Assembly: GCA_050084515.1 (NCBI GenBank)
Contig: CM114271.1
Location: 22,506,001 to 22,570,000, forward strand
Source of the DNA: Blasia pusilla
Taxonomy: Eukaryota
Reading direction: 5' to 3'
DNA length: 64,000 bases
Below are positions 37,801 to 60,495 of this stretch, in pieces. Position 1 is the first letter of the stretch. Each line of letters begins with the position of its first letter. A program made the translations under genes and the position numbers. A model generated the notes under the pieces. It was given only the letters and a program-made list of their open reading frames with translations. It was not told the DNA's origin and made no database searches.

Positions 37801-38570
37801 TGTCGTACTCATACACATCGCTACACAACATACATCGCTGTCACCGAACATACACACAAATACACACAATCCCATGCTAACTAATGGCATCCAAACAACG
37901 AGACAAGAAGTACCAAAATATCTCCAATAAAATAAGATCCAATCTATTTCACAACACCATAGTTCTCACATGTGTGCACTCTCACATATCTCTCTCAATG
38001 TCAAACCAAACCCACTCTCCTAATGAGAGGCTTGGGTTACATTCACAAGGCAAGGGACCTTAGCCCCGCCGCCTCATGCCAAGAGGTTCAACAAAGAGAG
38101 AATGAGCTCTCAAGCTCTCTCTCCTTGAGGTATACCCCTCCCCTCTCCCAAGCTCTCTCCATGGTAACCTATGCTCCCAAGTCACCTCCTTGGCTCTGGA
38201 CCTGATGTAGGAGGTCAAGGGATACTTACCAAAAATAGAAAGTTGACCATATACTCAAAATGGTACTTACCTAAAATAGTAAGTTTCTCAACATGGCTCC
38301 AAATGAGCCGAAACGAAGGGGAAACCTTCTCTCAAGTTTCCCGGGGCCTCAACAGGTTATCCTCCATCTCCAGAGCCTTTCCTCCATAACTCGAGAAGGC
38401 GCTCTACTAGATCTCACCGATCTATTCTAGAAGATGTGACAACTATCGTGCGCATACACATCGCTACACAACATACATCATGTCACCGAACACACACACA
38501 AACACACACGATCCCATGCTAACTCATGGCATCCAAACAACGAGATAAGAAGTACCAAAATATCTCCAAT
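37801..38570 (-). repeat. 3' terminal block Y1-X2-Y2 of element B
   Basis: Y2 37801-37928 and Y1 38444-38570 are about 127-bp direct repeats. X2 37929-38441 matches X1 60496-60998. Confidence 0.9.
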
Positions 38571-38750
38571 CGCCCCCCTAGCTGGTGGTTAGGTTCCTCT
38601 AACTCCAAATAGCCATCTATCACTATCTACCATGACATACGTCTCTCGGACGCTAAGAGCAAGGAGGCCGGGTGGTCATGTGGCCCCATTGTTAGTCGCC
38701 TTCTTATCATCCATGTCACAGATACAAGTCGGAATATAGAACTACCTACG

Positions 38751-38895
38751 CTATGTACATCTGGGACACATCCATCGTCCCTGAGGAACCCTAGTGAGAG
38801 GTCGCGTCACACATGCCATATGCCATCCTCTCGAACATCCATCACAGATTAGCATAGTGGCTGCACCACGGGCGGAACCACACAACATACATCTC
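38751..38895 (-). pseudogene. PHD finger at the C-terminus of pol/integrase
   Basis: CMLC..MLICDGCSRGWHMAC..PLTRVPQGRWMCPRC, an intact C4HC3 pattern. Confidence 0.92.
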
Positions 38896-40292
38896 AAGCC
38901 TGCAGGAACTACTGCTAAGCTCAGATCAATTGTATCGTTAATGTTCGAAAGGTGACACGATGCACAGTTACGCACATGGTCCTTCCAAACCATACCATTG
39001 CGTCCCTCCAATAAGAGAACACATGATGGCAAAAACTCACGCACTCTCAAGATGGTGCCCCCTGTAGTCACATCCAACATCATGGGTGCCGTCTGTTGCA
39101 AGTAGACATAGTCTCTATGATGAAACCTCCGGATAGTAGGTCGATAACCCCCCCGTGAATAGTCACATACCTCAATGTATCCCGATGTTGCACAATCGCC
39201 AAGTTCTCAAACGCAATGGGCATCACTCTCCCAAATAATTCAGCCCTCTGAGAACATGTTCGCATCCATACATCAAGGTCATCAAGGTTTAACACCTCAC
39301 CAACATCTCGACGAATAGCCGCACGTAAATCTGGCTCTCCGCCATACAAAAGCAAGTCCGGTGAGAAAGATGCTAAGGATGCCTGTCTCCTTTAATCCCA
39401 TTGCCAACCATGGCATATGAAGGTCTCAATCTCCTAGGTGACCTCTCTGCAAGCCATACTTGCGTAGTCCTCTCTTCACCATCTACACAACCCGCTCCGC
39501 TAGTCCATCCGCCTCAGGATGATCTCGCGAAGTAGTGCGGTGGTCGATTAGTGCTTGATCACACAAGGCCTGAAACTCCCCGCAGAACTGTGTACCTTGG
39601 TCTGTCAACACCTCAGCTGGTGCGCAGTAATGACTCAGCACTCAATCTAGGAAGGCATATGCTACTCCCTCACTCGCTTTGTCAAGCAATGCAACCAACT
39701 CTATCCACTTCGAGAAGTCCTCAACCATCACCAACACATAACGACTATGGGGCTCCGTCAAAGGCAAAGGTCTTGCAAAATGCAAACTCCATCTATAACC
39801 TAAACCCATGATCGGAAGTGGATGCAACTGTGGAGTCGAAGCATTTAACAATGGTCGCACTCGATCACACACCTTACATCTGGCAACAAACTGTTGAACG
39901 TCAGTCTGCATGCCTTGCCACCAATACTGAATCTGGAGCAAGCTGTACGTCCTCTTCACTCCAAAATGACCAAACTCCTCGTGGGCATGACGCGCCCAAC
40001 GTATTCTCTGCAAAGTATGAGGCACTACACGCACTCTACCATCCTCCCACACTCGCAATACATATGTCCCCTCCCTTCCGAACTGTCTGGCTTGCTGTAG
40101 GATCCGATCCCACTCTCTAGCACCCACTCTGCTCGCGACGCTGCGAGCACGCAGGTACTCCAAGACCATTCCATCGTCGTGAATGTCTCGGCCACCTGTT
40201 GTCTCCTCACCGTCCTCTGGAACTAAGAACTCTCCATTAGACCTCGCCATCAAAGTCTTAGAAATCTGGCTCTCCATAGCCAACAAGTCCAA
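38896..40292 (-). pseudogene. Gypsy DDE integrase, frameshifted
   Basis: Zinc-binding region HEEFGHFGVKRTY..YWW.GM..DV..FVARCKVC; core YRWSLHFARPLP..YVLVMVEDFSKWIE. Confidence 0.92.
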
Positions 40293-40299
40293 ATAGGCT

Positions 40300-41530
40300 C
40301 ACGCATGCCATCATGGCACCAACGCCTCATTACTCTCACCATGCCAACGAGCTCAGTCACATCTCGTTGACTCGAGCATGGATGACGGCTCAAACCATCT
40401 GCATTGTTGTTGAGCGTCCCAGGTCTATGCACCACGTGGAAGTCATACTCTTGCAGCAGAAAAACTCACCTCACAAGTGTCCCTATGAGCTTGTCGGACT
40501 CCATCAACCACTTAAGTGGTTGATGATCTGGGTTAAGGGATTTAAGGGATTGCCAAATAGATAACACCTGAAATGCGCGAGAGCCCACACTGTAGCCAAG
40601 CACTCGTCCTCATACGAGCTATACTTTGCCTCTACAGCGTTGTTCAAGCAACTAGCGTAAGCCACCACGAACTCTCTACCATCATCGTCATGTTGGGTGA
40701 GCACGGGTCCAAGCCCCAACATGCTCCAATCGGTATGCAATTGGAAAGGATGCCCCCTGATCTGTCTCCTTAATATGGGCGCGGACGTCAATCTGTCCTT
40801 GAGCAGCTGAAATGCTCTCTCTGCTCATCCCCCTAGTGCCACTCCTGATCCATCTTGGTCAGCAAGGTCAGCGGCTTCGCAATGGAGCTGAAACCCTTGA
40901 AGTACCGTCGATAGAAGCTCGCCAAACCCATGAATGCAAACACCTCCTCTAGATGTCGGTCATGCTCCTCAACCGTCGCGCTAAAGACTACCATGTCAGC
41001 AATATAACAACTAGCAAAATCCAGACTTGCCAAGATCCTATCCATGACCCTCTCAAACTCAGCCGGGGCGTTCTTTAACCCAAATGGTAAGAACCGCCAC
41101 TAGTACAAGCAATCCTTCTCGTGAGGATCGATGCCCCAAAATGCCCTCCTCTACATGTTCTCCAATCTAATAGGCAGCTGATGGTATCCAGCTTAGAGAT
41201 CTAACAAACTGAAGATCTTTGCATGCCCAATAGCATCAAAGATTTCCTCATGAGTGGGCATGGCATACCTATCGGACTTTGTCTGCCGATAAATAGGTCG
41301 ATAATCTCCACACATCCGCCTATCCGTCGAGTTGCCATGCACATCCTTCTTGGCGGGCATGATAGTGGCAGATGCATACTCCCCACGTAACATCTCCATT
41401 AGTCCCGCTCCAACCAAGTCTTGGTTCCTACTCTAAATCAGGGCCTCTCTATGTCACTATTCCTGTAGGATTGTCCGAAGATCGGCGTGTCACTCGACAA
41501 CTCAATGCGGATCCCTGGACCCTTCAGCGT
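40300..41530 (-). pseudogene. Gypsy reverse transcriptase and RNase H, degenerate with an internal deletion
   Basis: KKD..RRMCGDYRP, KIFSLLDL, PFGLKNAPAEF, CYIAD (from YIDD), PFQLHTDWS..GLG.VL.Q, YSSYEDECLA, HRPG..NNADGLSR. Confidence 0.93.
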
Positions 41531-41999
41531 ACCCAAATCATGCATACTAAATGCAAAACAACGCCTATAACTCCTAAGGAACTGGTGTATCTAGCGTCGC
41601 TCTCCTCCTGTCAACTTAGGGCCCATATCATGCTCCCAAGTATCCATCGTGATAACGATAGGACTCTCTGGTGCGGGTGTCGGTGGTTGCTATGGTGCAA
41701 CCCCGTCTCGGACAACAAAACTCGACTGCTCCCTTGCATCCAACTGCAAAATCGGATCTCCATTTGCACTATCCGGAACCACGCTCGATGCTGTGGCTAC
41801 CATCTTGTGGCGTACTTGCAAAACATCCCAAGAAGTCCAAGGATGTCTCTCCCAATTACCCTTGGGATGTCGATCTGCTTGAGTCTCGCCCCCAACCATT
41901 GCCTCAACCGTCTCGGTAGGCATGGGGCTCACCAACATAACTGCTATGATCTGTCGTATCCTCAAACGATGCTGCTCAAGCTGCTCCTAAGCTGAAAAT

Positions 42000-42852
42000 C
42001 CATGTCAAGCAGTTCAGGTCCATTGTCTGACCTAAGACATAACGTCATGATGCCTCTGATAGTGACGGTATTGCCGTCACTCCTGGGGGGAATCCCATCG
42101 CTCGCTCTCGCTCATCGGCGTTGGGCTCCACCAACCTCTGTACCTAGTCATCCCAAACCAAGCCAGGTCCGGCCTCCTTGAATGAATAGGAAGCAAGAAA
42201 ACTCACAAATGTGGGAAAGGCTGCCCGTGGCATGCCAATCTTGTTGACCACAGTCAACGGCGGTCGATCATCGTGCCTCACTGCCTGTGATCAACGGTCC
42301 GGATCCAATATAGAATACACCAAAAAATCGGAGGGGTGCTCCACTCTCGCATATGCCCTCCGCAACACCTCGTGTGGTGCCAAGTTGGTCCACCAAAGAT
42401 GCGGGCGATGTGCTCGTGAACCCACACTCGCCACATCCAAAAAAATTGCCGAGCCGATCCATGCGCGTACCTGATGTGCACTCCTCACCACACGGGACCT
42501 CGAATCGCCCAAAATCAGTACATTCTCGAGAATGTATGCTGGAGGACGAGACTGATGCTTCTGCAAGTGTTGCAAGATCCGCATCATCTTCCAAAACAAC
42601 CAGGACCAAGAGTCAGCTAATCCGCTACCCTGTCCATCATTCGATTGGCCCTGATATGGCCAACCAGCAATGACCAAGTCTATAGTCGCTACTCGCTCCA
42701 AGTCTTGTGCCCCCAACAATGAAATGTCCCTTGGTAGGGAACTCTGGTAACCCTGAATGGCGGACGCAGACAACAAGTCGAGAAAACAGAGGCGTAACTG
42801 CGCCACATGGTGAAATAAAGCGCGCCTCGCAACATCATCAATCTCCACATAC
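42000..42852 (-). pseudogene. Cytosine-5 DNA methyltransferase domain of element B, C-terminal part (motifs II, IV, VI, VIII, IX, X)
   Basis: VEIDD, IDLVIAGWPYQG (PCQ>PYQ), YILENV, SRAHRPHLWWTN, EPNADERERAMGFP, YVLGQTMD. One reading frame with three nonsense codons. Confidence 0.92.
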
Positions 42853-43866
42853 CACTAGTAGAAAAGGGATCATTTTTAACCCATATCGTTGTTACTCATG
42901 TTACTTAGAGTCATTTGAACTACTCTTAGTTACTCTGAAACCCTCCTAGTGACTCATGAATTACTCACATGGTTGTGGAGTCATATTTAAATACTTTTTT
43001 ATTTTCATGAAAAATAATATTTTTTTAAGACTAATAGGAAGCCACTTTATCTCAAGTTACTTGGCATATACTTGTATAACAATGTAATGAACAAAATGAA
43101 GAATTTTTTTAATTAGTACTTCCAAAACATTTCATGGAATATATCATATCGGTCGCACTATATCTTGCAAAAACTGACAAAAATCTGATAAAACTAGAGA
43201 TTTCTTACAAAACCCTAAACTTCCAAGCCCGCGTTAAGCCCTCGTTTGTTGTTTTTGTCATTCCAGCCTTATCTCCCTTGCCCACCCCATGCGCTAAGCC
43301 CTCTTTCCTTGCCCGCGTTAAGCCCTCATTCGTCTTTCAACGTTCAAACCTTTTCCACTCGCGCTCTTCCATCTTCTCTCTTGAAAAATGCGTGTAGAAT
43401 GAGTGAAATAATCTTCACTCACTTTGCTACTACATTCGAGGGTACGAATGTTTGGAGATAATTTCTGCAAAGACTTTGTGAAATTGCAGCTCGGATAGCC
43501 CGATAGTGGAAGCTGCGGCCGGTTTGCTCTTAGTTTAATGTGGATGTTCATTTTCAACTACAACTGCATTTAGGGAAAGCTTCATAGATGGGTGTCGACT
43601 GCACACCATGGGGGAGAGAAAGAGTGCAAACCCCATCAGGTAGAGCCTTCACGAAGTCGTGGTGCTTGAAATTTATAATGATAGAGAAGAACGTCTTGCA
43701 ACGAAGCATTTAGGAGAAGCACCATTGCTCTACAATCATCTTGCTCTGAATTTCATTTCCTTTCAAAAATCATGTGATGCCCATAATTTTGTACTTTTGA
43801 AGAAATACATCTTTTTATTCAACGAAGACTTGTATATACATTATGATTTTAATTATTATATATTAT

Positions 43867-44975
43867 TATGGGGAGGAATGAGTAAGATTAAAGCGAATCA
43901 CAAAGCTCCAAGGGCAAGGCAGAGAGATAGAAAATCAAGGATTCGCCTAGGAGGAGAGGAGAATAAAATAACGAAGTCTCAAGACCCAGCAAGAAGCTTC
44001 GGAAGGACAACGAAGCTCTGTCTATGAAGTGCTTCGCTCTATAACGAAGCATGAAGAAGAAGAGAAAGAAGTACTTCGCTCTTGTACGAAGCACGAAGAA
44101 CAAAGCACCTAGAACAAGAACAAAGAATGGAGCGCTTCGTCTTCAGATCAGAAGAAAGAGCTTCGTCCTCAAGCAAAGCAAAAGAGGTCCAGACTTAGCA
44201 GCGAAGCGAAGCTAAGATTGACAATTATTTCAAGCGACACATAGTTAGAATAGTTAGAATAGGAAAAGACGCAACCCTTTGTATCAAATTGGTAGTTATG
44301 ACAGTTTTGTTCTGCGGATTCATAGGGATCATAGGAAAAGCAAAGAGCACCATAGATCTAGTTAGTTACAAATGTTGAAGAGACACCACCTTCATAAAAA
44401 ATGCTTCGAATCTTTGGATTAATCCTCCTTCAGAGAGTATTTAAGAAGCATAGAAGTAGCTATCGTTATCATTCTCTTACGACGTCCTTAAGCTGTAGGA
44501 ATGGTCCGAGCAAGGGAGTAGTACCCTCTCGAGCTTGTATACACATTGAAGCTTTCTCATTCTTGATGGAGTAGTAAAGCAATCATTCATTCATTCTGAT
44601 ATGCGATGATTATGTCTAAGTATTTTTTTTGGATCTCCACAATGAAGAATGAATCAAGGCGAACCTTTCTCATCAATGGAATAATCAACATAAAGCTGTA
44701 GGAAATCTGTTTGACAGAGAGTAGCCTGCCGAGACGGATTAAGTTCCGAAAGTAGGAGAAGCCCGCTTTCATGTTGAGGTCTCTATGAGGTTTCTTAATA
44801 TCGAGAGGAAATCTACCTAAATGTGTTGTCAACTTCATTAGAGAGAATTGAGAAAAGAAACTTTGTTACTAAGAAAGATCCGAAGATATTGATAAGACAT
44901 TGAATATAAATCATACAGATTTAAATACAACTATTACAATAGAATCATAATTTCGAACTCTCTTTTCATCAAACA
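43867..44975. mobile_element. Possible solo LTR inside the CACTA element
   Basis: Compositionally distinct CGAAG-rich block ending ..CATCAAACA. Candidate TSD ATTAT/ATGAT; 5' end TA rather than TG. Confidence 0.35.
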
Positions 44976-45992
44976 ATGATCCTCTTGGGGATCGAACTTA
45001 TTAAACGACTGTAAAATAGAAACTCTTGTACATTACAAATCAAGATTGTTCGGCTTCTGTAGCTAATGTTTTCATTTCAGATGTAGCTCCATCATTTCGG
45101 GTGTAGCTCTTGGTTCAAAGGTGGCTTGTGACTACACACATTGGGAGAGAGAAAGTCTACAAAACTCATAAGGTAGAGATTCCACCGAGCCTCTTTGCTA
45201 AATCGTTGCTATGAGATCATGGTGTTGCTTGAAATCCAATACGAGAGAAAAGAATAAGGTCTTGCCGTATTCCTGTTTTGGAGAAGCCGCATTGAATTTT
45301 TCTTGCGTACAATCATTTTGACGAAGCTGCATTGCTCTCACAAGCATTGCTCATACATTACCATTGATGTGCGCCTGAGAGCTGAATATCCATGTATTCA
45401 TCTATCTAATCCTCCGTCTCTCTCTTGATTGGAAGTTTATATTGCGTGTCGATCTTGAACAAATAGGTTGTACCTTCGGAAATCCAAACCAAATCGCCCA
45501 TACCTTATCTAAGTAGCACATTTTATTGCTTCTTGTTCTCTCATATTTGTGTCATAGCCGCCTTGGTTCTCTCCCCCCGCATTTTGCAATCAAGGCAATT
45601 GTGATTGCACATGATTGATTGGTAGCTGCACTTACAAACAGGGACACAAGCCGGAAGTGCATTACTACTCAACGACTCTAATTATCGCGCAATTTCTTTT
45701 TATGCTTGAATTGCATCCAATTTGGATAGACCCCAATGATAAAATCATGTACCAACCCTTCTAATTCAGCAATAGTGATATAGTGAAGAGATAATGGAGA
45801 GCTCCGGTGAAGAGATAATAAAGAGCTCTTGGTAAAGGGGTAAATCGGAAAAAAATCTAGAGCATTCATCTCCACCATCGGGCAATCCAGCAACAGTCCA
45901 TAGTCACACTGACATACATCACCTAGCTTGCCTCAGTACCTACATTGCCTTCCACCTGCATCCTTGAGTCACAGGAGCATCACATACATCAC

Positions 45993-46148
<156 letters not shown>

Positions 46149-47949
46149 AAGTGTTGGTGTAGAGACTCAAGTCTTAGAACTTGGAGGGGTTCCACTCCAA
46201 GTTTTGATATCAAACAAACAAGTTCAGGTTTCGTACCGGACGACAAGCCTTTTGGGAAAGAGAACGGTCATATTTTATAATTGTTGGTGGCAGGTAGAGC
46301 TTTGAAGGAGTCAAAGCATATAATGAGCAGGTATAAAAATCTAGAAGCTACGTTTTCCCTGGACGCGGTTAAAAAGGTATGAAATCTGATTGAAATTCAT
46401 GGGTTGTTTCCGTAGGAACTTATTGGATATCTTAAGGGTCATGTGCGTTACATAGTGGAATAACAAAAATCTCCCGTAAAAAAAAAACCCTCCTCAATAT
46501 CACACATCCCCTATACCAATCCATGAAAAGATCCATAGGTGGATACTTGAGGGAGAGGTGGACGATTTGTATGGTGACTTCTTTGTATACTTAGTTTTGA
46601 ACTACTCTTTTGTAGTTTAGTAAATATTTAGGGTATTCACTTGAATGGAGAGAAAGTTTTTTTGTCATTAAATATCGGCGCTTGTAGCCTTGTGCACCAT
46701 GGAGAGAGAAGTCTTAGGAATGTAACATCCTCCATGTCTTTGGATGGCATCAGAGTGATGGCGGGTGTTTCGTTTCATCCAATGGTTCAAAACGACTCAG
46801 GGTACTTTTTGTCCAGATTAAGGATCCTTCCTTTTGAAGTGAAGGTCAAGATCTTTACCATGAGCAAGCCTACTAGTCTGGACCGTGTCCTTGCCCTCCC
46901 ATAATCTGCAAGGGCAAACATTTGTTACTTTCATGCTTACTCTGAGCGTTATTGGACCCCAAATAGGTGACAAAGGCATACTACGAATTGGCTATTCCGC
47001 TTAGAAGATCGCCACGTGTATGTGCGATTTGTAGACATTTTTATGTGGAGGGAGGATAGAGGAGCACTATTAGCATGGCTAATGCTTGGGGTCACCCGCA
47101 AAGTCGCTCTTCATATATGTCATGATGCTGGGGGGATTCTCCTTGGGGAGGATCATCCCATTGTTAGGAAGGCACGAGCCAACATTGAATATGCGCGTTC
47201 TATCGGTGGCCATACGCTAGAGGTTATTCTTGAGTATTGTAGTACTTGGGAAGTTGTCACCTCGGGGGACTAAGTATGCATTCGCTCAAGTCGTAGAACA
47301 ATTTCAGGGAAAGTTTGCATATGTTGCCTAAACTTATGCCGTGATGTTGGAGTATGGCAACAAGTCAGATTTGTAGCCTAACTTGAGGCCCTTCATATGG
47401 CCAACAGGTAACATTTGTAATTGACAACAATAAGACAATAAGAGGATCCATTTTAGCGAGTCATTGATTGAGTCACCGTTATTTTTCTTCATTGATGGAA
47501 TTGGGCTTATTTTGAGGGACCATGGTGTATGTACACTCTTGACCTTGGACGATAAAAGATGCTATTACGGGGATGTATGCAACCAAATAATAAATAAGAA
47601 GTAATGATTTCTGTAGAAAACAATTGCTTGTCATGCTATTTAACTTTCACTTGTTCTATGTACAGGTACCAAAGGATTGACTATTGGAAATCCGAGTATC
47701 GTGAAGGCTATAGGTAACCTCCACATCCACTGAAATCCATTTTTAAGCTTTTGTTTTCCATGCCTAAATCATGGACATTCAATATCCATAGAATTTCTGC
47801 ACCTAATAGTAATCTTATTGTCTTTTGTGCCGAAATGTAGGAGTAACCAACGTACAAGGATGGCGCGCCCAAAATACCAGGCCAAAAAAACTCTCGAGGT
47901 GAGCACTTATGCACCATATAGTGCACTCCAGACATTTGCACAAGGAAAC

Positions 47950-48519
47950 CCATATTTGTGCAATTTGTGATGATGGGGAAGACCTGGTTGTTTGCAACGG
48001 GCCTTGTGCCAGGCACTTCCACGCAACTGCAGAATCGGCGGGGGCTATAGAGAACTCTTCTCCAAGGGTCAACCTCCCACCCAACCACGAGGGGAGCTGG
48101 TTATGCGCCAAGATTGTGTGAAGCAAATCGCCAAGTATGCCAAGTGTGGTCTAGAGGGGAGTTTTGGAGAGAGCGAGGATTCTGGGGTTCGTGTGAGAAA
48201 GTGCCCGAATACCTTTTGTGTGAGATTTTTTTGCTTTACTTTTTTGCCTACAGGAGTGGAGTCTTTCCCCATCCATTATTGCCCAGAATTCCATAAGCAT
48301 GATGAGGAGTTGTGGGAGGACATGGTCTATTGTCCTAGATGCCCCACTGCATGGCATTGGACTTGCTTGAAGAAGGCTATGAGTAAGGGTTATGCATGCG
48401 ATTGGATTATATATGACCATGCTGCATGTGGTGAGGATAGGTGGTGGTTCTATTGCCACGAGCATAAAGTTGATCCCACACTTCAGACTCCTTTGAGAGA
48501 TCATATTTCATGGATTTGA
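47950..48519 (+). pseudogene. EDM2-like composite PHD-finger module carried by the CACTA element
   Basis: ICAICDDGEDLVVCNGPCARHFHAT, one frameshift near 48105, then KCPNTFCVRFF..PIHYC..YCPRCPTAWHWTCL..FYCHEHKVDPTLQTPLRDHI. Confidence 0.82.
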
Positions 48520-49477
48520 TTTTCAGGTTGGCGGATGAGAGATCCGTGTCTGAACAAAATTCCGTGGCATTTTGGTGGAGAGTGCAGGGTAGCCACTTTT
48601 GATATAAAGAGGGTCGAGGCTCTAAACATGCTAACTAGGTAGGTGGTATGACTTCGTATAGAGACTTGCCATTACCTATCCTGTGTATTGAGAGTTACAA
48701 TCTTTTGAAATTTTGACCGAATGGCCATAATTGCAAAACTATATAATATCAAGTTTTGTATGAACATTATGCATTAGACATGTTTTGGAAGAATGAAATG
48801 TAATCGTGGTGGTTTCTAAAAGACTCTTGTGATTAGGCTCTTGATTAGGATGTGTCCGGTTGTAGGTGGAATTCTGTATTCACTCGTCATCCATTGCCAG
48901 ATCCAATCATGCAAGTATAGCTTTAGAGCTAGGTAGCCCATCATGGAAAAATATTGGCAACACAGTACCAAAATGAGAATTGTTGAGCTTCCCCCACTCC
49001 CAAGTGGCGGTGTCTCTAAAGTGTTAATGTGTCATGAGACCTCACCCGGATGCGCATCGGGTACGATGCCAACCTCTCTTTTTGCAGGGATTGTAGCCTG
49101 TATCATGGCCTCCCTTGAATTGCCCCATGATAAATGGTGTCAGCTTAAGACAAACACTTGTGAAATTGGGTGGGAGAGAGACTGATTGTCTCCGTGATGC
49201 CACACATGGCATTTCTGGGAATTGGGTAAGAGTTTTGGAGAATTTGAGATGGACCATCCTGAATTCCCAGAGGAATGAACGCGGTGTTAAATATGTCCAC
49301 ATAGATTGGTTGTCCTTGTCCATCCAGGATGGAAGATTGCATGACCCTGACGACCATGATTTATTCCAGAGTAAATCAAGCTCGGTGGTTGTTCTGAAGG
49401 AGAAGAAATTGTATTGGAAGAATGTGAGGGAAGGGAAACCACTCCCAACTGGTCCGCCACCCACTCCACATCCAACC

Positions 49478-49755
49478 ATGTTTGGTCGGGTGAGGGTAGT
49501 ATTTGTCCCTGACAATATATCTCAATGGAGGTTGACATGGATGAAGAGAAAAATTCTAGAATGTGGATGACATGGTGGATAGGAATACGACCCACTTGAT
49601 TTGCCGATCCTTTTCCAAAGCCTATAGACATCATGGAAAGACATTGATTCATTTGTGGGTCTCATCTCAAGGTCTGTATGTGCTTCATTACAATTGGGTC
49701 AAAGAATCCATTGAATTGGGGCACTTGGTAGAAAGTACTCCACATGACTTGATTG
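49478..49755 (+). pseudogene. BRCT-like domain carried by the CACTA element
   Basis: MFGRVRVVFVPDNISQWRLTWMKRKILECG, frameshift, then DRNTTHLIC..HGK..VLHYNWVKESIELG, a THxI..WxxxS pattern. Confidence 0.65.
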
Positions 49756-50199
49756 GAAACAAGCCATTGAAACAACCATACCGGATCAACCAAGTCTCTG
49801 GAGACATGGAGGAGCTTACAGATGAGTGGCAAACCACAGATGACAAAGAAATAGATTCCACCAGTTTGGATAGTTGCGAAAGTAGTGCATATACCGTGTA
49901 CTAAGACATGTTTTTTTGTATTCAATGTGGGTTCCATCTCACTGATTTTGCCTTAATACCAGGTTGCTTGAATATGTCCACATGCAGTGACTACATTCCA
50001 AGTTGGCCAATCAATTGTATAAAGGTGGGGAATATCAACAACCTCGCCCATTTTTGTTACCACCCTATAAGTTTATAACCCTATTTTTTTATGGTTGATA
50101 GTGAAGTTTGGTATCTTTAGGGTTTCATGGATGTCCCACCTAGCCCTCCCTAATGGGGGAAAAATGCTCATCATCATGCACCCATAGGCAATCCTCCAC

Positions 50200-51764
50200 A
50201 CCACTTCGGACCTAGAACAAGCAGGTTACCATTACAACATCCAGAACGGATCAGAGCTCGTGATTCCAAACTTTGGGATCGGAAGCAAGTCCTAGTGGGA
50301 CACTCTAGAAGTGCAAGGATGAGATATCCTTGTGTAGCTTGCAATAGGTCTCGCACATAGGCCTTGCAGAATGTTTTCACTCACCTTCAAAAATGCGGAA
50401 GGCATCCAAAAAAAAGAGTTTATGGAGTTCTAGGCGATGAGGACTCGTCTGATGAAGAGTGGAGGTCCGCATCAAACATTGCCAATGCGGCTAGACATGC
50501 ACAATTTTTGGGACAAGCAATGGGCAACCTCAATGCCCGAGATGCGGGTGAGGCAGGTAGCACACTCGAGAAGTTTGAAGACAATAACCATGATGATGGG
50601 GTTGATGTTGAAGGTGATAGTGTTGATCATGGGATTGATGTGCAACGAATGGTCCGTGACATCTTCCAAGATCGTGATGCATTCTATGATGATGTTGAGA
50701 GCATGGAAGACATCACTGATATAGCCAAAGAGGCTGGAGAGGACGTAGATGATATTGGGCAAGAAGAGGACGAGTAGGGATGGATGTTTGGGTCGCATGA
50801 AACTGTTGCTGATGCATGCAGGCCTCTGTTCCATGGCTCTAAGTGTACAAAGTTGGCCTTTGTACTCATGTTGATGAACATCTGTGGGAAGCATGGTGTC
50901 CCAGTTGTGTTTGTTTCAAGGTTACTTGCATTCTTGAAGACAACAGTCTTTTCTATTGGGAACATGGCTCCTAGCAATAAGTACGAGGCAACTAAATTAT
51001 TGTCAAGTCTTGGATTGAATTACTGTTCCATTCATGCTTGCCCTGATGGCCATATGGTCTTCAGAGGAGAGCATGAAAATCGATCAAGTTGCCCAGTATG
51101 TGGACAAAAAAGGTATCGGAATGTGGGCAAGTCCATGTAGCCCACAAAGGTACTTTGACATTTTGAAATCATTCCTAGATTGAAACGGATGTACAGCAGC
51201 CCAAAAATTTCAAAGTTGATGACTTGGATAGTCGAGAACAAGAGTATCGATGGCCTGCAGCGGCACATCGGAGATTCAGAACATTGGAGGTTCATCGACC
51301 AGAGATGGCCAGAGTTTGCAAGAGAGACAAGGAATGTGAGAGTTGGCCTCTCGACCGATGGAGTCAATCCATTCGGAGACAAGAAAAATGTATATTCTTG
51401 CTGGCCTGTATCCGTGCTGAATAACAACCTCCCTCCGTGGTTGACTACTAAGAAGTTTTTTGTCTTATTGGCTTTGCTTATCCCGGGCCCATAATCTACT
51501 CTTTCTAGGAATATAGACGTTTGGATAGCTCCTCTTGTGGATGAGTTGAAGCGCTTGTGGTACAAAGGCATTGGGATCCATAATGTGGTGCAACGGGTTG
51601 GGAGACCAAACCCATTTAGGCTACAAGCCTTATTGATATTGACTTTGGGAGATTATCCAGCCCACGACATGATTTCACGTCATGCAACAAAGGGGTATTT
51701 GGCTTGTACTGCATGTGGCCCCAATTTCACTGGTGAGCTTGCCATCGGTGGCAGAATCTACTGA
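50200..51764 (+). pseudogene. CACTA TnpD (Tnp2) transposase, 3' truncated
   Basis: IHACPDGHMVFRG..CPVCG..RY, IIPRLKRMY, RHIGDSEHWRFID..RNVRVGLSTDGVNPF..SCWPV..NLPPW..LIPGP, IAPLVDELKRLW, GDYPA..KGYLAC..C. Confidence 0.93.
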
Positions 51765-52360
51765 TGACATTGATGCTCACATTGGAGGTGAAGAATCTCC
51801 CACTTGTGATCCACAGTTTGTTGTAGGCTTTGGTGAAGAGGATCAATCATGCTCAGATGAGCTTTCGGCTCCTAAGGAGCCCTGTCCATCAACAGTTGGG
51901 GGAAAGAAGAAGCAAGTAATTTCTCCGTTTCAATTAGACAAGATGTGTGTCTACAATTTTGTTTCAAGGTTAGTGGCATTTGAAATAAATTGTCTCTAAT
52001 CGGTGGGTTGCATTGCATTGGCAGAAAGGGACAGTTGGAGGGGAAGCTACTTGGGCAAGGGATGTTGCACCCGGGCGTGTACCTGAAAGTCGTATTCCTC
52101 TCAAACAGCAAGTGGGTGTACAATATAGTGGAGTGGGACAGGAAAGCATGTCTCAGGGTGGTAGAGATGGACCCTATGCACAGAACTCCAAGCCAAGTTA
52201 GTTATACGGTGGATATTGTCCAACGGGGCAAGGGTGGAATAGTACAAATCTATCCATTTGCAATCTCAAATTTCTCTTTCATTATACATCATAGGATGAT
52301 GGTGGGAAGGTTGTGTGATGTGTCTATACTACACTGACATATATATCATATGTAGACTCT

Positions 52361-54750
52361 ATGCAGGGTGGATTCTCCAACTACACCGAGGGACCCTATC
52401 ATGCAGTGCCAAATAGTCAAGATCGGTTTGGAAGTAGTCAATATCTTTATGGACTCAATAATAGCACTCCAGAAATGTATGGACAACCTCAATGGTTGGG
52501 GCTAGGACCCACTCAAGGAGTGCAAATGACAAAGGCTACAGGTAATAGCAAGTCACGTATATATAGAGAAGTATCATCCCTATTTGGAGAATTTCTTCCA
52601 AGTGTTTTCACTAATTAGTAAGTGATCTGACATCGATGCATAGAGTCGGCTTGTAGGCATAAAGATTTGCAAAGTGGGCAGTAGTCCACTTTGCAAATCC
52701 TGAAGACTTGACTGAAGACATTCATACGACTCTAGGCTTGCGACGGGCAAGCGTTGGGACAACATACACACCAAACTCAGTGACTGGGAGCAGTGTCGAA
52801 GGCGAGGGGGTGAAGGTCCGAAAAGTGGGTGTGAACAACTTTGGTTGGATCACCACAACTTCAGAAGGAAAGAATAGGTGGTATGCAGATTTTAGAGTCG
52901 AGGTGTTGCGATGGCTTGACATCTCCATTGTGAATTTTTCAGACCAACAGTGAGGGGATTGGAATTCGGTGTTGAGTGATATTTCTGCTAGATGGGAGTA
53001 TGTTGGAAACAATGGCAATAGAGTGCCTCTTCCATGTTTGGAGGAATATGCACAACGAATACTCAAGACGGAGAGATTTAGATTGCGTTAGACATGGAAA
53101 GAAGCTGGAGAAGGCAAGAAAGTGGCCCCACCACCTCATATAGACCCCAACCAATGGGGGAGATTACTTATGCACTTCATGAGCAAGAGTGCAAAGACAA
53201 AGAGTGAGCAGATGTCCAAAGCACGGGCAGCGGTGACCAATCTAAACCCTGCAGGAAGAAAAGGGAATGCACCAATTGTAGAGCGCCTAGTATGAATAAT
53301 ATTGAAGGACACATCTTTAATTTCTATTACCACCATGCATATAGTTTTGCAATTGGTGTTTGGTAGACTAAACTTGGTTGGTGTAACATGTGTTGTAGAG
53401 AAAAGAGAAGGGGCAAACCCCTACTAAGGCGCATGTGCATGAGAAGCCAAAGAACCAAAGGAGTTATGGTACAAGTCCAATGTCAAAGCAGGTATTTGCA
53501 TCTAGTTGCTTTAGAGTAGAGTTGAATCTAGTGTATTTCTAGTACATGCCAATTGATATAGACTGAGATCCAGGTTTTGTATTTCAGCGCTAGGAACATC
53601 AAAGATGACGGAGATCTCTGCCCGATTAAAGTCTATGGAGGAGTTGTTGCCCGAGTCTGTGACTTACATAATTGATCGCATGGATGCATTCTCCAGCAGT
53701 TTGGACGTGCTAGAGGCAAGCATAGAGACTTATGTTGCTAATCAACAAGAGAACTTCATAAAGTTGATGGAATTGATTTCCATGAGCTTGAGAAGGGACC
53801 ATGAGGACATAAGGGGTTCCAAGGAGAGATCGGAAAATCCAAGAGTTGTATCCTCTCCTCATGGAGTTAGTGATCGAGACCCTACTCCTAGTGGAGCACT
53901 TGCCTCTATGCCGTTGAGTGTATCCTCTCCTCACCCAATCACAGGACCACCTTCAAGGGAGAGTGCACCCTCTCCGGAGCTGGTCACTATTGTGTCTTCA
54001 CCTCCAATTCTTCCACAAGTTGCCAAGGGTGTTCATACAGTAAGAGGACTAGATACAATTTTTGGCATTGCACCAACTGGTCCAAAGAAAAAGGGAGCCA
54101 CAAAAGAGGTTAATGCTACTATGTTTGCGCGTGATCCTTTGAGTTCAGGTATGTGAGTTAAAGTGATGTTGTGCATTTTACTTTGAAGTTGTTGAAAATC
54201 ATGATCTATTTGAAAGGGTAGTTAAAGTTTCTTGTTGATTGTGATTGTAGAGACCACAGATGAGGCCCCGGCCGTTGTAGGCAAACGCCAGGGTAGGACA
54301 TTGCGGAGATGCAATTTGGAGGCCACGGTATTTTCAGAGGAGAATGAGGAGAGTGCAAGGATGTTGGAGGGTGGTGGACCCATGGAGTTGGATCATTTGG
54401 ATCTTCTACAAAAGCCAATGGTGGTGAGAAGAGCGACACTTAAGAAGAGGACCCGAGAGGCTACCAAGCCGGTGTTGAAATCTGTTGTGCCTCTGTGGCA
54501 CCAGTTGATATCACGTGAGAACCCCTCTGTGGTTGTAGGTTATGGCAGCTTGCATGATGGTTGTTCTACTTTCCATGGATGTGACATTCCACATGGGCAT
54601 TCTGTTCTCCATTTGAGAGAAGTCTACAAGAAGAAATATGTATTGCCATTTCCAAATATGGTTGACGATCCACCACAGATTTATGTTGGAGATGTCATTG
54701 ATAGTGTAGTGTTATGGCCATCTCATCTTGTTATGCCTTCCCAGAAGTAG
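52361..54750 (+). pseudogene. CACTA TnpA-like second gene, spliced and degenerate
   Basis: PPHIDPNQWGRLLMHF..KTKSEQMSKAR....PAGRKG (Ptta/En/Spm type) at about 53130-53270; a coiled coil; C-terminal FHGCDIP..LPFP..GDVIDSVVLWPSHLV. Confidence 0.7.
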
Positions 54751-55845
54751 GGGCACCTTCGCTTTGTGTGTAGAATTTTTTAGTAAACCTTCCCTTTGAC
54801 ATCCCTCTTGAGTGTGGCGATCTCCATATACTTGTAACTTTTGTACTCATAAGTAGAGGAACATGATGTTTGTGTTTCAATTTTGAGAATATCAAAGGGG
54901 GAGTTTGCACTGAGAAGTAGATTTTGTGTTCTTCCATTGATGAGCATCTTTAACTATAATTCATTAGGCATTCTTCTGACGTAAGAAAATAGTCCATTTC
55001 AAGATGTATGGATACACTGTGTAGCTTTGGACTTACTGCCACAATTGGATGTAAGAAACATTTGCTAGCTGTATCTTTCAATAGATAAGGATTTTTTACT
55101 GTGAAAAACTGAGCTGATCAGATGCTACAACATGGATGGGTTGGTACATGAGTAATGTGCTTGTATGTTTTCACACGATGCTGGTAGCATTAGGACTATA
55201 CAACAGATACATAATGGCATCTCCATTGCATGGACGTAAGAGAAGTAGTGATAGGTGCAGGGAGGGTAGGTAGGAAGGATTAATTCATATTCATGGATAC
55301 AAAATGGACTAAAATGCCAATTTCATTTACATATTCTTGTCAACAATAAAGCAATATGTCATACATAATGACTGGTATAGTTGTTATTTGGATATTATTA
55401 GTGAATAGGATTGTAAATGACATGGAAAAGTCATTTTAATGACTCTTAGTCATTATTTTATGACGCATGAAATCATTATTTATTATTCTGAGTAGTCACT
55501 CTTAATGACTCGCCTAATCATTATTAATGACTTGTCTAGTCAATTCCTAATGAATCTAGTCATTCTTGATGAATCATCTAATCAGTCCTTATGACTCTTC
55601 TAGTCATTTCTTATTACTCGTCCAGTCATTTTTTATGACTTAACCTAGTCATAAAAAATGACTAGATGAAGTCATATTTAGTGACTATGTTGAGTAACAA
55701 AAAAGAGACTCATAAATGACTACCCTCGGTTTTAGTAACAACTTATACGACTAGGAGTAATTTTTATTACTAGAGTCTGGTTAAGTAATTACTTAATCAC
55801 ACAGGCCCGGTTTGAGTAACATCTAGTCATTTTTTTGTACTAGTG

Positions 55846-55990
55846 TACAGGTACTGCTGCACGCGCACTCCAACGTGCAAAACAGAAGCTAACCCAGTGT
55901 TGATCCCTCCAAAGAGATCCAACACCTGAATACCCTCCTCTTGGATGCACCACACAATCGGGGTGGTGTCCAAAGGGGTGATAGCGGCAC
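55846..55990 (-). pseudogene. DNMT domain N-terminal part (SAM-binding motif I)
   Basis: EEGIQVLDLFGGINTGLASVLHVGVRVQQYL; joins in frame to YVEIDD after removing the CACTA element and one TSD copy. Confidence 0.92.
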
Positions 55991-56299
55991 TCCTGCCTAC
56001 CTGGGATTCCTCTGACCCGTCACACTCTGGTGCAAACGTCTCGCTCCACGCAGTCTACACATGCTCAGTGGCTAAGCGTTGAAGCTCCTCAACCGAGCCC
56101 CAAAGCGGCACCTCTCCTCCACGGACTGATGTGGCTACCATGACACTCCTCTCCATAGAAATGTGAGGAACGGGAGTATCCTCTGCATGGACATGTCCCT
56201 CAATAAAATCAATAGGCCAAGTGATGGCAATGCTAAATGCTGCTAAGGTCGCCATCTCTCCTGGCGGTCGCTCGATCACTGCACATGTAAATCGAACGG

Positions 56300-56720
56300 G
56301 TAATGATCTAAGGCGCCCATCACCTGACTGCCATCCTAGTCTATAGGACACCCACTCCTCCGAGTAATCCAGGGAAAACCCCATCGGGTATAATACTGCT
56401 CCACCAACCAAGACGTCGTAGGACTCTGCATCAGTCACTATCGCCTTGGCTCACACCACGAACTCATCTATAGGTTGTCTCGGGCGAATCCTAACCACAA
56501 CCTCATGTTGGGTGATATACTGTGTGATACTCACTCCAAGGATGTCTGTATCCGGAATGGACAATGCTCCACATCGGCTCTCGTCAAGCCCAATCCTCTA
56601 AATGCCACTTTCCCCAACATCATGGGTTGCGCTCTTGAATCCAACAAGACGCGTTGCGGACTAAAAGCTCTACCTCCAGGACTCACCAACTAGAAGACTT
56701 CTCCCCGATTATCCAGCAAC
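56300..56720 (-). pseudogene. Retroviral-type aspartic protease of element B
   Basis: PQRVLLDSRAQPMMLG (LLDSGA with G>R) and YDVLVGGAVL. Confidence 0.8.
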
Positions 56721-57349
56721 ACAACACCAGGAGAAGCCATGGCACACTCTATCGCGGGTCTAGCGGGCATCTCCGCCATCCTAGCAGCCGTAGCGTGCTA
56801 TGAATTTGAAGTGGACACCCCGAGCATCCGCTCCAAGGGTAGGCCCATCACCTCCTCTGCAAACACCTCAGAACATGATGCAAGAACTCCAACTCCACGC
56901 TCACCTAATGTAGTGGCCAGCCAGAACACCTCGGTGGGTGTACCTCCCAATGTCATAACATTGGAAGCAGAAAATAGCAAAGCACGGTACACCATCGTGG
57001 CCGCCCCCAACATCGTACTCGACACATGCTTCTCCTGAGCATCACCAATAGGAGTCGTTGCACTCATTTCTCCCATTATCCTCCGTGCTTGCACACCAAT
57101 AACATCACCAACTCTCCGGGAACTCTGATCAAGACCCATCGATGGGATCCTCATGGCCTCCGATAATGTGAAAGATTGAGAAAGCCTGGTCTGTTTCGTG
57201 GCTTCCCCTCGCTATTGATCCAACTCTGCAGTTGCTCCACGCGTCACAACTGCGGCGGCCTCCATCTGGGCAACCCTGCACATCCAACCAGGATCCTCCA
57301 TATCTCTAGCTGCTCCATATGATGTCGATGCCACGGATCCGGCATCCGG

Positions 57350-58681
57350 TAACCTCAATGCCGTAGTGGCCCTCTGCTCCTATAGCTACTGTAATCGAGC
57401 AACCATCCTAGCCTCACGCCCGGCGTCTCCCTCGACGCGTCTAGGTGGTGGAACTCTACCTCCTCCACCGGCAACTCCACCACCCTGTCGGGCAACTCCA
57501 ACTCCTTGTCCCCCAACGGGACCACCTGGTGCACGACCTCTAGGCCCACTCGGACGTGCAACTCGCTCTAGTGCCATCTCGGGCCCTTAGTCCCGACATA
57601 ACTCAGGGTGCAAGCTGAAACATCTCGCGCGTGTATGACCGTACCTTTGACAATAGTCACACTGATAACCTCCTGCTATAGCACCATCTCCTCCTCCATG
57701 CTGAGGCAGAAGTCCATGACCCTAACGAGTGCAATCGCGGTGATGATGGGCTCCACCACATGACCAACAAGTAATCATAGACGGCTGATGTTGAGCCGCA
57801 TATGAAGGTGCAAGTCTCTGTGGTACGGCCTCCTGATATCCTCCTTGAGCTCGTGGTGCCACAATCAACCTATCTCGAAGTCCACGTTGCTGCATGGGTG
57901 GTGTAGACAATCGTGACTGCTCTTGCCCAGAACCCATGGTGGCTACGCTCTCCTCCGCCATGTTGCGCTCAATATTCTCGGTGGTCATTAAAACAACTCT
58001 CAACGTAGGGGAGATGTTCATAAGAAGCACCCTCCGTACCCGTATCCGCAGGGTCCAATCCAACATCGCGTACCATGACTGTATAGCATGAGCCTCTGTC
58101 ACCCCCTGAATAACGTTGATCAACCAGCATAAGTGAGTGGAAGCCTCACACAAACTCTCACCAGGGCGCCTCTGGAAGTCGTGGATGCTTCGCAACTTCT
58201 CCGTCCATACCCCCTGGTAGCTTGCCCTCAACTCAGCGAAGAACTCAACCACGAGGTTGAACCTTGGACGAACCCGACTAGACAGTGCAATCGCTCCAAT
58301 GCGAGTGACCCCTCCTAAAACATCACTAGTGGAAGAGTAAGCAACCTCTCCTAGCTCCTCCTCCTCCTCATGTGGGAATGGCTCCGTCCATGACTCATAG
58401 TGTGGATCATAACACAGTCGCCATGTCTCAATCTCTTGGGCATATCTGTGGGAGAACTCATGGTAATCGTCCATGGGCGCCCCCTCTAAATGCTAGAACA
58501 TATGGTTCCATGCTATAAATGGGTTGAACTCTTTAGAGTTCCTAGCCCGTTCTGAGTCATACCAACTCCTAAACTCTACAATGAAGTCGTGTAGCTCTAT
58601 AGTGCCTACAACACCCGAAAACCTACGCGGTCCTCTACCCCGATCATCCATCTCATACGCCCAACTGGTAGGACCACTCAA
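57350..58681 (-). pseudogene. gag of element B with two CCHC zinc knuckles
   Basis: PRRFSG..LHDFIVEF, FQRRPGESL, CWSCGGAHHHRDC, CDYCQRYGHTRARC. Confidence 0.85.
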
Positions 58682-60495
58682 TGTGTATGATGGATGACTA
58701 ACACAATCCTCTTCACGCTCTCACGTGGAGATCCTCGAAACCTCGCACCACTCCGGGTAAACCCTCCAGAGCTACTCTGAGATCCACTACCTTGCCTCTC
58801 AAAATCCCAAAAAGATGCCATGATGACCCTCATGTCCCTTTCTCGCAATCACTCTCAACCTCGCCTGCAATCACTCGATCACTCACTTTAACATGCGGCA
58901 CTCAAACTACACTCTCTCAGTGAGACGTGTATTGTGCGGCAACAAACGGCGTGGTGCGAAAATAGGCTAATCTATCATCTCATCGACAAACCATCCTCAA
59001 CTCAAGACATCCCACACAAGCCTATGTCCCCTAAACCCATACATCATCGACGCTCTCACCATCAGCACGAAACCCAATATCCCAAATAACTTCCCAATAC
59101 CTGGAAATCCCCCACACATGCAGGGTAAGAGACCAGAATGGGTAACGTGACAATAATGTCGATGTCGCTCCTCAACAACTGCAAATCTCAGCCCAACTCG
59201 GTCGTGAAGACAACTCCTCCAATTGGCAAGTCGTATTGCTCTTGTACTGACGTTGCTCAAACCTCCTCAATGTGCGGTGTAGGTCCAGCAGTCCGATGCA
59301 CCATTGGCGGCATGAAACAGCATGAACGACACTCGAGAATGGGGTGTGGCACTCGGTGGCATACCCTCCTCAATCAGCAATTCACAGGCCTTGCTCCTTA
59401 GTGAAGGAGTGGCTCCATGATCGAGACGATGCGATGCGGCCATGAGCGGCACGGGGCGGCAATCAATGGCGCGTTGCGGCTACGGGCATCACGGCAGGGT
59501 ACTCGATCGTCGTCGAGCGGCTACAAATCACAACATAGCAACATAAAATGAAAACTCAAACACCATAACCCGAGGTCACATGCCATCACTGGTTGATGAC
59601 GAAACTGCGATGACCGTGGCGGCCAAAACAAAGTACGTGGTGGCGGCGCAAGTCAAAGAATCAACAGTCATCGTGGAAGACCCTCCACTCCATAATGGCG
59701 GCAATGGCAGCCAAGGGTGGACAAAGGCCAAACGCGGCTTTGAGCACCGCTAGGCGGCGATGGTGGCCTACGGTGGACGATGGACGGTGGATAGTGGACC
59801 GCTGACGGTGACGATTAACCGTTGATGGTGATGGTTGACCGTTGACTGTGAAGGTTGACGGTCGATGGTCGATGGTAATGGTTGACCATTGACGACAGAC
59901 CATTGACGGTGACTATGACGGCGACAGCCATCGCCGGCGAGGCGGCTGGTTTAGGGTTTGAACAATTTAACCCTAAAAATCACCTACCAATTGCAAGATT
60001 GACCATAAATTTTTGCTTGCAAATCCAAATTATGCACCGTCTAGTGCATAACTTGCACAGATTTACGATCTACGACAGTCTTAAAAAATATTTTGAATGG
60101 ACATTTGAGTAAAAATTGACTGGGATTGTTGTAAAGCCCAACGTCTCTTTCTCCTCCACAAAAATCTGGCAGCGCTTTCGCGCTGATTTCTCACAACTAA
60201 GATCTAAAACCTATGAGAACACAAATCAGCAAGCTACATGGTGCTCCTAAGAGCACCGGCATGGAGCAATCCCCCCCATACTCAATTTCTATCAAAAATT
60301 GGGCAGCGCTTCCTCGTGCCACTCTCCCGTACAAAAAATCAACAATGCAAAACAGCAAACTCGCATTGCTCTTGCTCCGGTGAGCACTCCCATGAGCCAC
60401 AAAGCAGGGAACACGGTCCCCCAACCTACACCAAACATCAAGAAACCTGAGAGCTCCCCCATGAAGCTCTCTCACTTGCTCAATTCTCTCTTTGT

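Follow-up and report, generated by a model that had tools for sequence, protein, structure and literature searches.

Does the cytosine-5 DNA methyltransferase (C5-MTase) sequence in a 64,000-nucleotide stretch of Blasia pusilla DNA (contig CM114271.1, positions 22,506,001 to 22,570,000; 'the window') belong to the host or to a mobile element? The sequence lies in two parts on either side of a CACTA transposon, and both parts fall within a Ty3/Gypsy retrotransposon that we call copy B. Sequence comparisons suggest that the locus is an old, inactivated copy of a Gypsy-DNMT3 element that would have encoded gag, protease, a DNMT3-like methyltransferase, reverse transcriptase (RT), RNase H, a DDE integrase and a PHD finger; we give this interpretation a probability of about 0.87. 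By the same comparisons, the family is probably the bryophyte arm of the Gypsy-DNMT3 retrotransposons, a kind of element first reported from Klebsormidium nitens.

Organization of copy B

The element and its coding regions are arranged as follows.

37801-60998, minus strand: whole Ty3/Gypsy retrotransposon copy B (23,198 bp)
56669-58636, minus strand: gag region (tblastn of Marchantia P0006 residues 9-637 and P0019 residues 9-654)
56537-57022, minus strand: aspartic protease region (tblastn; motif DSR, against DSG in relatives; in-frame stops)
55848-56054, minus strand: methyltransferase (DNMT) part before the break, motif I, LDLFGG (tblastn; alignment with relatives)
41979-42851, minus strand: DNMT part after the break, motifs II to X (PF00145; tblastn, 56-60% identity to Marchantia proteins)
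40938-41656, minus strand: reverse transcriptase, frameshifted (RVT_1, E 2.5e-10 on one piece; tblastn pieces in different frames)
40355-40833, minus strand: RNase H (RT_RNaseH_2, E 1.7e-26; tblastn)
38892-40298, minus strand: integrase, comprising H2C2 zinc finger, core and C-terminal region, with stops and frameshifts (Integrase_H2C2, E 1.5e-16)
38757-38891, minus strand: PHD finger at the C-terminal end of the integrase (PF00628, E 1e-10)

Pfam and tblastn give the Pol order protease, RT, RNase H, integrase, with the DNMT intercalated after the protease. Copy B is collinear with P0185, a relative of 1946 residues in which Pfam recognizes protease, DNMT, RT, RNase H, integrase and PHD domains. 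The integrase region aligns collinearly with residues 1452-1939 of P0185 (tblastn, E 1e-67), its core matching the rve region of that protein, and relatives carry gag-asp_proteas at the position of the protease. The longest open gag piece spans 57725-58492. The DNMT domain is in frame with both neighbouring regions; a TAG stop at 56055-56057 lies in the same frame, just upstream of the motif-I part. The 186-residue DNMT part after the break matches PF00145 with E 1.5e-8 and 34.9 bits (cutoff 22). Pfam detected no tyrosine recombinase in the pieces of the window or in the relatives scanned, a DDE-type integrase being present instead. By its Pol order and its DDE integrase with an H2C2 finger, copy B is a Ty3/Gypsy element.

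The CACTA insertion

The two DNMT parts are separated by a single inserted element.

42853-55845, plus strand: CACTA/EnSpm transposon (12,993 bp), with terminal inverted repeat CACTAGTA and the 3-bp target site duplication (TSD) GTA at 42850-42852 and 55846-55848

On the minus strand, the sequence at 55845 reads ...CAG CAG TAC CTG TA and then CACTAGTAC...; at 42853 it reads ...CTACTAGTG and then GTA TGT GGA G.... The motif-I stretch of the DNMT, after one in-frame TAG, ends with ...VLDLFGGINTGLASVLHVGVRVQQYL at 55848, and the next base opens CACTAGTAC. Past the mirror end CTACTAGTG, GTA TGT GGA GAT reads (Y)VEID. Because the CACTAGTAC and CTACTAGTG ends abut the interrupted coding sequence, the inserted element is assigned to 42853-55845. 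Open reading frames (ORFs) at 51159-51494 and 51495-51764 encode a Transposase_21/tnp2 protein (E 6e-29 and 9e-15). With its CACTA termini, 3-bp TSD and tnp2-type transposase, the insertion is a CACTA/EnSpm element.

The flanks of the break share a reading frame, QQYL being followed by YVEIDD. The two DNMT halves were compared unjoined, and natural Marchantia proteins bridge the break: in tblastn, P0012, P0011, P0006 and P0019 align to 56xxx-55845 and then to 42851-41979, meeting the break at the same residue from both sides. For P0012, residues 596-811 align before the break and 811-1080 after it; the second part of the four proteins aligns with E 1e-94 to 1e-105. Uninterrupted natural relatives read ...RRYLYVERDE... 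at this point.

Two other features touch on the CACTA element. Within it, an ORF at 47974-48519 gives a weak match to a PHD-variant/RING-like zinc finger (E 8e-4, below the Pfam cutoff). Elsewhere in the window, 22499-24671 holds a second CACTA-like coding remnant, whose ORFs resemble, by eye, 50361-51140 of the inserted element; its segment 23769-24671 has no Pfam match.

The methyltransferase domain

The motifs of the domain follow one another in the order I (LDLFGG), II (VEID), IV (GWPYQG), VI (ENV), VIII (RAHRPHLWW), IX (ERERAMGFP) and X (LGQTMD), motifs IX and X being reached by reading the same frame through three in-frame stops. Used alone against the PDB, the window sequence matched DNMT3B weakly (E 0.005). 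A profile of 21 family members matched DNMT3A (E 4.8e-23) and DNMT3B (3e-21), with both of which it is collinear, and also DNMT3C; the same profile matched DRM (1.8e-16, partial), HhaI (3.6e-9) and DNMT2 (2.5e-7).

An AlphaFold model of the intact relative P0001 (pLDDT 87.8, pTM 0.87) was compared with known structures by Foldseek. Among the matches listed, through rank 50, all are DNMT3A, DNMT3B or DNMT3C, with TM values on the target of 0.80-0.85 for catalytic-domain chains. In the ESM Atlas the nearest cluster is a streptophyte DNA_methylase group, followed by phage methylases, which adds nothing beyond Pfam.

Judged by these profile and fold comparisons, the domain is DNMT3-like, of canonical and not permuted order. 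It shares the motif order I-II-IV-VI-VIII-IX-X with the host enzymes DNMT3A and DNMT3B, its best profile and fold matches, but differs from them in that the family lacks PWWP and ADD domains and is embedded in a retrotransposon polyprotein. Pfam found neither of these domains in the window pieces or in the 9 + 5 + 3 relatives scanned, and a host DNMT3 gene was rejected on this ground and on the polyprotein context. Motif IV also differs, being PCQ in the family, as in most C5-MTases, and PCN in the aligned DNMT3A/B chains. DRM has a related DNMT3-type catalytic domain, yet one that is circularly permuted, whereas the window domain is not. A DRM identity was rejected on the canonical motif order and on the alignment, in which only profile positions 12-148 align, and only to the C-terminal part of DRM.

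Termini and direct repeats

The ends of copy B are formed by two kinds of direct repeat, and two further pieces of the family lie in the window.

60999-61002, minus strand: TSD TGCG (5' side), partner at 37797-37800 (sequence read)
60502-60998, minus strand: terminal direct repeat A1, resembling a 5' long terminal repeat (LTR), ~500 bp (85.2% identity to A2, 513 columns)
37935-38441, minus strand: terminal direct repeat A2 (sequence comparison with A1)
38442-38575, minus strand: short repeat B1 (134 bp), directly upstream of A2 (92.9% identity to B2, 126 columns)
37801-37934, minus strand: short repeat B2, the 3' terminus of copy B (sequence and read ends)
62314-64000, plus strand: second family copy, copy A, head to head with copy B; leader and gag only, running off the window
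36381-36930, plus strand: third A-type repeat, a solo or truncated copy (81-82% identity to A1 and A2)

Copy B starts with TG and ends with CA; subtracting the CACTA insertion and one of its two TSD copies leaves 10,202 bp. The chance expectation for a 4-bp TSD match at a fixed place is ~1/256. A B-type segment flanks A2 on both sides and none lies beside A1, giving the layout A1 ... B1-A2-B2. Since the 3' end consists of B2, which duplicates the segment in front of A2, the two ends of copy B do not form a simple LTR pair. B1 is itself preceded by a purine run, AGGGGGG. Copy A is 79.6% identical to 57661-59305, in inverted orientation, and has a tblastn match to Marchantia gag.

Sequencing reads were taken from one whole-genome shotgun run (~1% read) and three RNA runs, compared with positions 31100-43100 and counted at a likeness of at least 85%. 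At 37801, 953 DNA reads continue into dissimilar flanks (agreement 0.37), and because these genomic reads diverge into mutually disagreeing sequence, 37801 is taken as the true terminus of the element. DNA depth over the third A-type repeat (36381-36930) is ~1000.

Split direct repeats of the form A1 ... B1-A2-B2 are the arrangement of DIRS-order elements of the Ngaro/PAT type, which have the same layout of A1, internal region and B1 A2 B2. DIRS elements have a tyrosine recombinase and no TSD; the window element, by contrast, combines its split repeats with an H2C2-bearing DDE integrase, TG..CA termini and a TSD of 4 bp. The observed/expected CpG ratio is 0.71-0.72 in the element and 0.65 in the host part of the window, values that are uninformative on past methylation.

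Inactivation and decay

Copy B is dead. Its catalytic cysteine is replaced by tyrosine (codon TAT at 42654-42656, turning PCQ of motif IV into the PYQ of GWPYQG), its protease reads DSR, the DNMT part after the break contains three in-frame stops, RT and integrase are frameshifted, the CACTA element has split the domain and the A1 and A2 repeats have diverged by 15%. The events can be placed in order: insertion with a 4-bp duplication, entry of the CACTA element between DNMT motifs I and II, and decay. Mismatches between reads and copy B are more often A>G (190) or T>C (227; together 417) than C>T (83) or G>A (98; together 181). Because differing reads more often carry G/C where the copy has A/T, the data suggest that copy B decayed mainly via C>T/G>A changes.

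The first-pass annotation, made from the letters alone, had described a C5-MTase lying between the protease and the RT of a Gypsy element, and Pfam and tblastn collinearity bear it out. The excision point it gave, 42853-55845 with QQYL and YVEIDD in frame, is the one at which the Marchantia proteins resume at the same residue, and the termini, the GTA duplication and Transposase_21 agree with its call of a CACTA insertion. The seven motifs that it read are all present, in canonical order. Its statement that the arrangement is not of the DRM type holds, the family profile being collinear with DNMT3A/B (E 5e-23 and 3e-21 in round figures) and DRM aligning only over 12-148. The PF00145 scan that it proposed gave a match for the 186-residue part (E 1.5e-8) and none for the 69-residue part alone. 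That the copy is dead is confirmed by PCQ>PYQ, DSG>DSR, the stops and frameshifts, and repeats that are 85% identical.

Relatives and phylogeny

A word-seeded search for longer proteins containing the window domain returned 26 matches of 44-62% identity, all of them long. They include at least 11 Marchantia polymorpha gene models, three proteins of Calypogeia fissa and one of Sphagnum, and the named proteins among them come only from Marchantia, Calypogeia or Sphagnum. By Pfam, P0010 and P0011 contain DNMT, RVT_1 and RNase H, and P0012 contains gag followed by DNMT; the two former, both from Marchantia, have the order protease, DNMT, RT, RNase H (PR-DNMT-RT-RH). The motifs are retained in most of these close relatives: GWPCQ in 19/26, ENV in 23/26 and LDLFGG in 23/26.

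A HMMER profile scan of 1.84 billion representatives gave 607 matches with E <=1e-3, 231 of them with E <=1e-10. Among 32 long, more distant relatives, Pfam recognized DNA_methylase in 26, integrase in 24, RNase H in 21, RVT_1 in 18 and PHD in 16. Named members beyond the bryophytes include proteins of Closterium spp. and a Scenedesmus 'pol'. Local domain mapping of 199 proteins placed 47 in the order PR-DNMT-RT and 50 in the order RT-RH-DNMT-INT (INT, integrase), with 102 showing DNMT alone. The second of these orders, seen as RT-RH-DNMT-INT-PHD in P0190, P0050, P0061 and others, has the DNMT between RNase H and integrase. With two placements in existence, the DNMT has either been relocated or been gained independently among related elements. 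Behind the integrase, a PHD finger also occurs in P0185, P0190 and 16/32 long relatives; the partial K. nitens protein and the five Closterium-type proteins checked showed none.

The K. nitens protein KFL_009030040 (P0223) was retrieved with a profile of algal members of the DNMT group. In it, DNMT (312-369) is followed by RT, RNase H and integrase, the overall order being PR-DNMT-RT-RH-INT, and its alignment with Marchantia P0011 is collinear through protease, DNMT (30% identity) and RT-RH (38%).

A tree of 73 DNMT domains was calculated with IQ-TREE (LG+G4, 344 columns); from an earlier set of 127 rows, 10 of RT-RH-DNMT-INT type and 16 of unknown architecture were kept, and six new rows were added. 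The window domain falls in a clade of 18 rows with support 100/99, together with nine Marchantia, one Calypogeia, one Sphagnum and six unnamed sequences, and is sister to the rest of this bryophyte clade. Separate clades are formed by the K. nitens domains (100/100), the Closterium domains (100/99) and the RT-RH-DNMT-INT type with Scenedesmus (100/98). The Sphagnum sequence P0022, with P0007 and P0018, nests by the Marchantia clade, inside the liverwort-dominated group and not outside it; old paralogy, horizontal transfer and contamination are possible explanations.

Two expectations of the first-pass annotation are settled by these searches. Sister copies carry the domain at the same position (P0010, P0011, P0223; DNA depth over the domain ~770, against ~1 for single-copy sequence), and the named relatives, from two liverwort species and one moss, bear out the extension of such elements to a land plant.

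Abundance and transcription in the source species

In unique host bins the DNA reads add up to a depth of 0.6-1.8; in pol bins they reach 1292-2846, and in the DNMT bin (42328-42728) 769. These depths suggest hundreds to ~2,000 related copies in the source species, rough figures given the noisy baseline.

Across 37917-42327, RNA depth in 3/3 runs is 36-221 with the first mate on the plus strand and 0.3-12 with the first mate on the minus strand. Because this polarity matches that of a minus-strand host exon, and the usual stranded protocol, the element RNA is sense (minus strand). RNA depth is ~9-10 in the DNMT bin and 39-50 in the bin of that expressed host exon (31501-31901). The data show that the family is highly repeated and transcribed on the sense strand in the source species. 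Over 40450-40608, RNA reads (6, 11 and 13 in the three runs) and three DNA reads skip 157 bases; a deletion carried by some copies is a likelier cause than an intron.

All copies in the source species may be dead, the RNA coming from read-through, precursors of silencing RNAs or defective copies; we consider this a serious possibility, at a little under even odds. The copies are indeed diverged (B and A 79.6% identical, A1 and A2 85.2%), 61,234 of 97,198 DNA reads are <90% alike to the window, and one host exon alone has an RNA depth just a few times below the total for about a thousand copies. Set against this, the RNA is strongly sense-biased in 3/3 runs and spans the whole of pol, and Marchantia paralogue branches are short (0.01-0.08), as after recent activity, though in another species.

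Weighing the interpretation

Several further observations weigh against the interpretation given above of the locus and its family. The 69-residue motif-I piece, the protease piece and the gag piece have no Pfam match each on its own, and no tRNA-type (TGG-type) primer-binding site was seen after A1, by eye only. DNA depth in the DNMT bin is a third to half of that over RT and integrase, so that many related copies may lack the DNMT or have diverged in it, or RT reads may come from DNMT-less families. The RNA could be read-through or come from silenced loci. The evidence for an intact PCQ motif comes from proteins of relatives, not from copies in the source species, and the DNMT tree, in which neither host DNMT3 nor DRM serves as outgroup, has a polytomy as its backbone. 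The Gypsy domain of K. nitens gave no methylation in yeast (PMC5890265, passages on these elements), a null result that its authors deem inconclusive since human DNMT3B failed too. No Gypsy-DNMT3 enzyme is known to be active; according to PMC5890265, CG methylation in yeast was shown solely for a dinoflagellate DNMT3 borne by a DIRS element.

Possible roles of the methyltransferase and the PHD finger

Methylation of the cDNA or of the integration site was proposed by de Mendoza et al. 2018 (PMC5890265). Applied to intact copies of the present family, a working model would be that the protease frees the methyltransferase, or that the methyltransferase stays fused to RT, and then acts on the new cDNA of the element or on DNA at the integration site. 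A new copy could thereby enter the genome already bearing a host-like 5-methylcytosine pattern. The PHD finger of the integrase might direct insertion towards chromatin in which the histone H3 tail has a given state, in the manner of chromovirus chromodomains. Taken as a whole, this mechanism is tentative, and we would bet against it at roughly two to one.

The nearest PDB relatives of the PHD finger are those of CHD4, PHF12, KDM5A/B PHD1, DPF3, KAT6A, PHF21A, ATXR5, AIRE and UHRF1. The majority of them recognize histone H3 tails whose K4 is unmethylated. By analogy, such a preference would suit targeting to silent chromatin, which we offer as a lead. Chromoviruses likewise have a small chromatin-reader-type domain fused to the C-terminus of the integrase, but there it is a chromodomain, whereas the window element has a PHD finger. 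A role of the chromovirus chromodomain in targeting is treated in a section of 10.64898/2026.05.21.726589.

The domain could instead do a different job: methylation of host chromatin near insertion sites or self-restraint on copy number, action on RNA, or service as a non-catalytic DNA- or chromatin-binding module. The absence of DNA methylation by the K. nitens domain in yeast would fit such a job, as would the presence of a chromatin-reader-type PHD finger in the element, and RNA methylation was raised by the authors for DNMTs borne by LINE elements (the yeast result and the LINE suggestion are from PMC5890265). Because most close relatives have retained the catalytic motifs (GWPCQ 19/26, ENV 23/26), however, an enzyme is favoured over a scaffold, and the fold and best matches are those of DNA-acting DNMT3, with DNMT2 far weaker. 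We regard a different job as unlikely on balance, though it keeps a substantial minority of the probability.

Relationship to known elements

The closest published system is KnitGypsy-Dnmt3 of Klebsormidium nitens, Gypsy-type elements with DNMT3 (PMC5890265, passages on these elements), and the likeness is extensive: a non-permuted, DNMT3-related domain inside a Gypsy-type Pol ORF, with the order PR-DNMT-RT-RH-INT in common. According to the legend of Fig. 4c in PMC5890265, the K. nitens elements combine DIRS-like repeats with Gypsy domains; on the strength of that legend sentence, DIRS-like repeats are shared with the window element (A1 ... B1-A2-B2). The differences are as clear. The nearest named relatives of the window element come from liverworts and a moss rather than from a charophyte alga; its DNMT belongs to a separate clade of ~30% identity; and a PHD finger follows its integrase. 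The K. nitens Gypsy DNMT3 is present in few copies, with Ka/Ks of the domain <0.2 (PMC5890265, same passages), as against hundreds to thousands of copies in the source species. That ratio denotes purifying selection on the K. nitens domain; in the bryophyte family its proxy is the retention of motifs in 19 to 23 of 26 relatives.

Common descent of the bryophyte family and the K. nitens elements is likely from the sequence comparisons, not shown, because the backbone of the tree is a polytomy without a host outgroup. The alternative, that the two acquired DNMT3 independently, can draw on this backbone, on the separation of the K. nitens, Closterium, bryophyte and chlorophyte-type groups into well-supported clades, on the ~30% identity of the K. 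nitens and Marchantia DNMTs and on the second placement, RT-RH-DNMT-INT, by which the domain moved or was gained more than once. Convergence would, however, have to account for the same insertion point between protease and RT, with protease and RT-RH collinear (38% identity), for the retrieval of the K. nitens protein with a profile of the DNMT group and for DIRS-like repeats in both (K. nitens according to the legend in PMC5890265); we consider it improbable. A one-off capture, in which a single Gypsy copy took up a host DNMT3 fragment and the domain is no family trait, has in its favour only that one copy in the window is readable through the domain, copy A leaving the window within gag, and can be dismissed in view of the collinear gag-PR-DNMT-RT proteins in Marchantia (at least 11 gene models), Calypogeia, Sphagnum, Closterium and K. 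nitens, a domain in frame with its neighbours and a DNA depth over it of ~770 against ~1 for single-copy sequence.

Gypsy-DNMT3 is a kind of element already known, of which the window element is a land-plant member. A full-text search, with supplements and subscription journals outside it, found no published description of a DNMT-carrying Gypsy element in land plants. The later papers PMC12344493 and 10.64898/2026.05.21.726589 cite, in the passages concerned, just 'streptophytes' with the 2018 paper, and the supplementary DNMT trees of PMC12344493 and PMC5890265 may already hold bryophyte sequences. New here are the presence in land plants, the abundance and transcription, the PHD finger and the second DNMT placement in chlorophyte-type elements.

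Other features of the window

Host sequence and other repeats make up the remaining features.

31501-31901, minus strand: host exon with a sharp boundary at 31507, where 65-93 RNA reads in each run pass on to another exon; its ORF resembles, by eye, the N-terminus of a serine hydrolase (FSH1-type)
20032-20904, minus strand: host ORF with an EXPERA/EBP-family match (E 6.6e-7); no other host protein family was matched, and this one is uninformative on the taxon
35110-35911 and 35562-36401: another high-copy repeat (DNA depth ~500-1000), overlapping a Copia-like RT fragment
35384-35725: region where many reads have rearranged joints, with a 33-nt piece of the B repeat at 35387-35419

Implications

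The widest view of these elements would be that of an old lineage of the green line combining a DNMT 'writer', a PHD 'reader' on the integrase and DIRS-like repeats, present in up to about a thousand copies and transcribed in land plants, whose domain has moved at least once within pol (PR-DNMT-RT and RT-RH-DNMT-INT); as a single account, it is doubtful. Cytosine methylation is the main means by which plants silence transposons, and a transposon carrying a DNMT3-type enzyme inverts that logic. Published cases so far are from a charophyte alga and dinoflagellates. The gene sets of Marchantia polymorpha, public for years, hold the family as 'hypothetical protein' and offer a tractable land-plant system; counts of bryophyte 'DNMT3 genes' can be inflated by transposon copies. 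If the interpretation is correct and intact copies are active, transposon-encoded de novo cytosine methylation would operate in these plants beside that of the host DNMT3, DRM and CMT enzymes.

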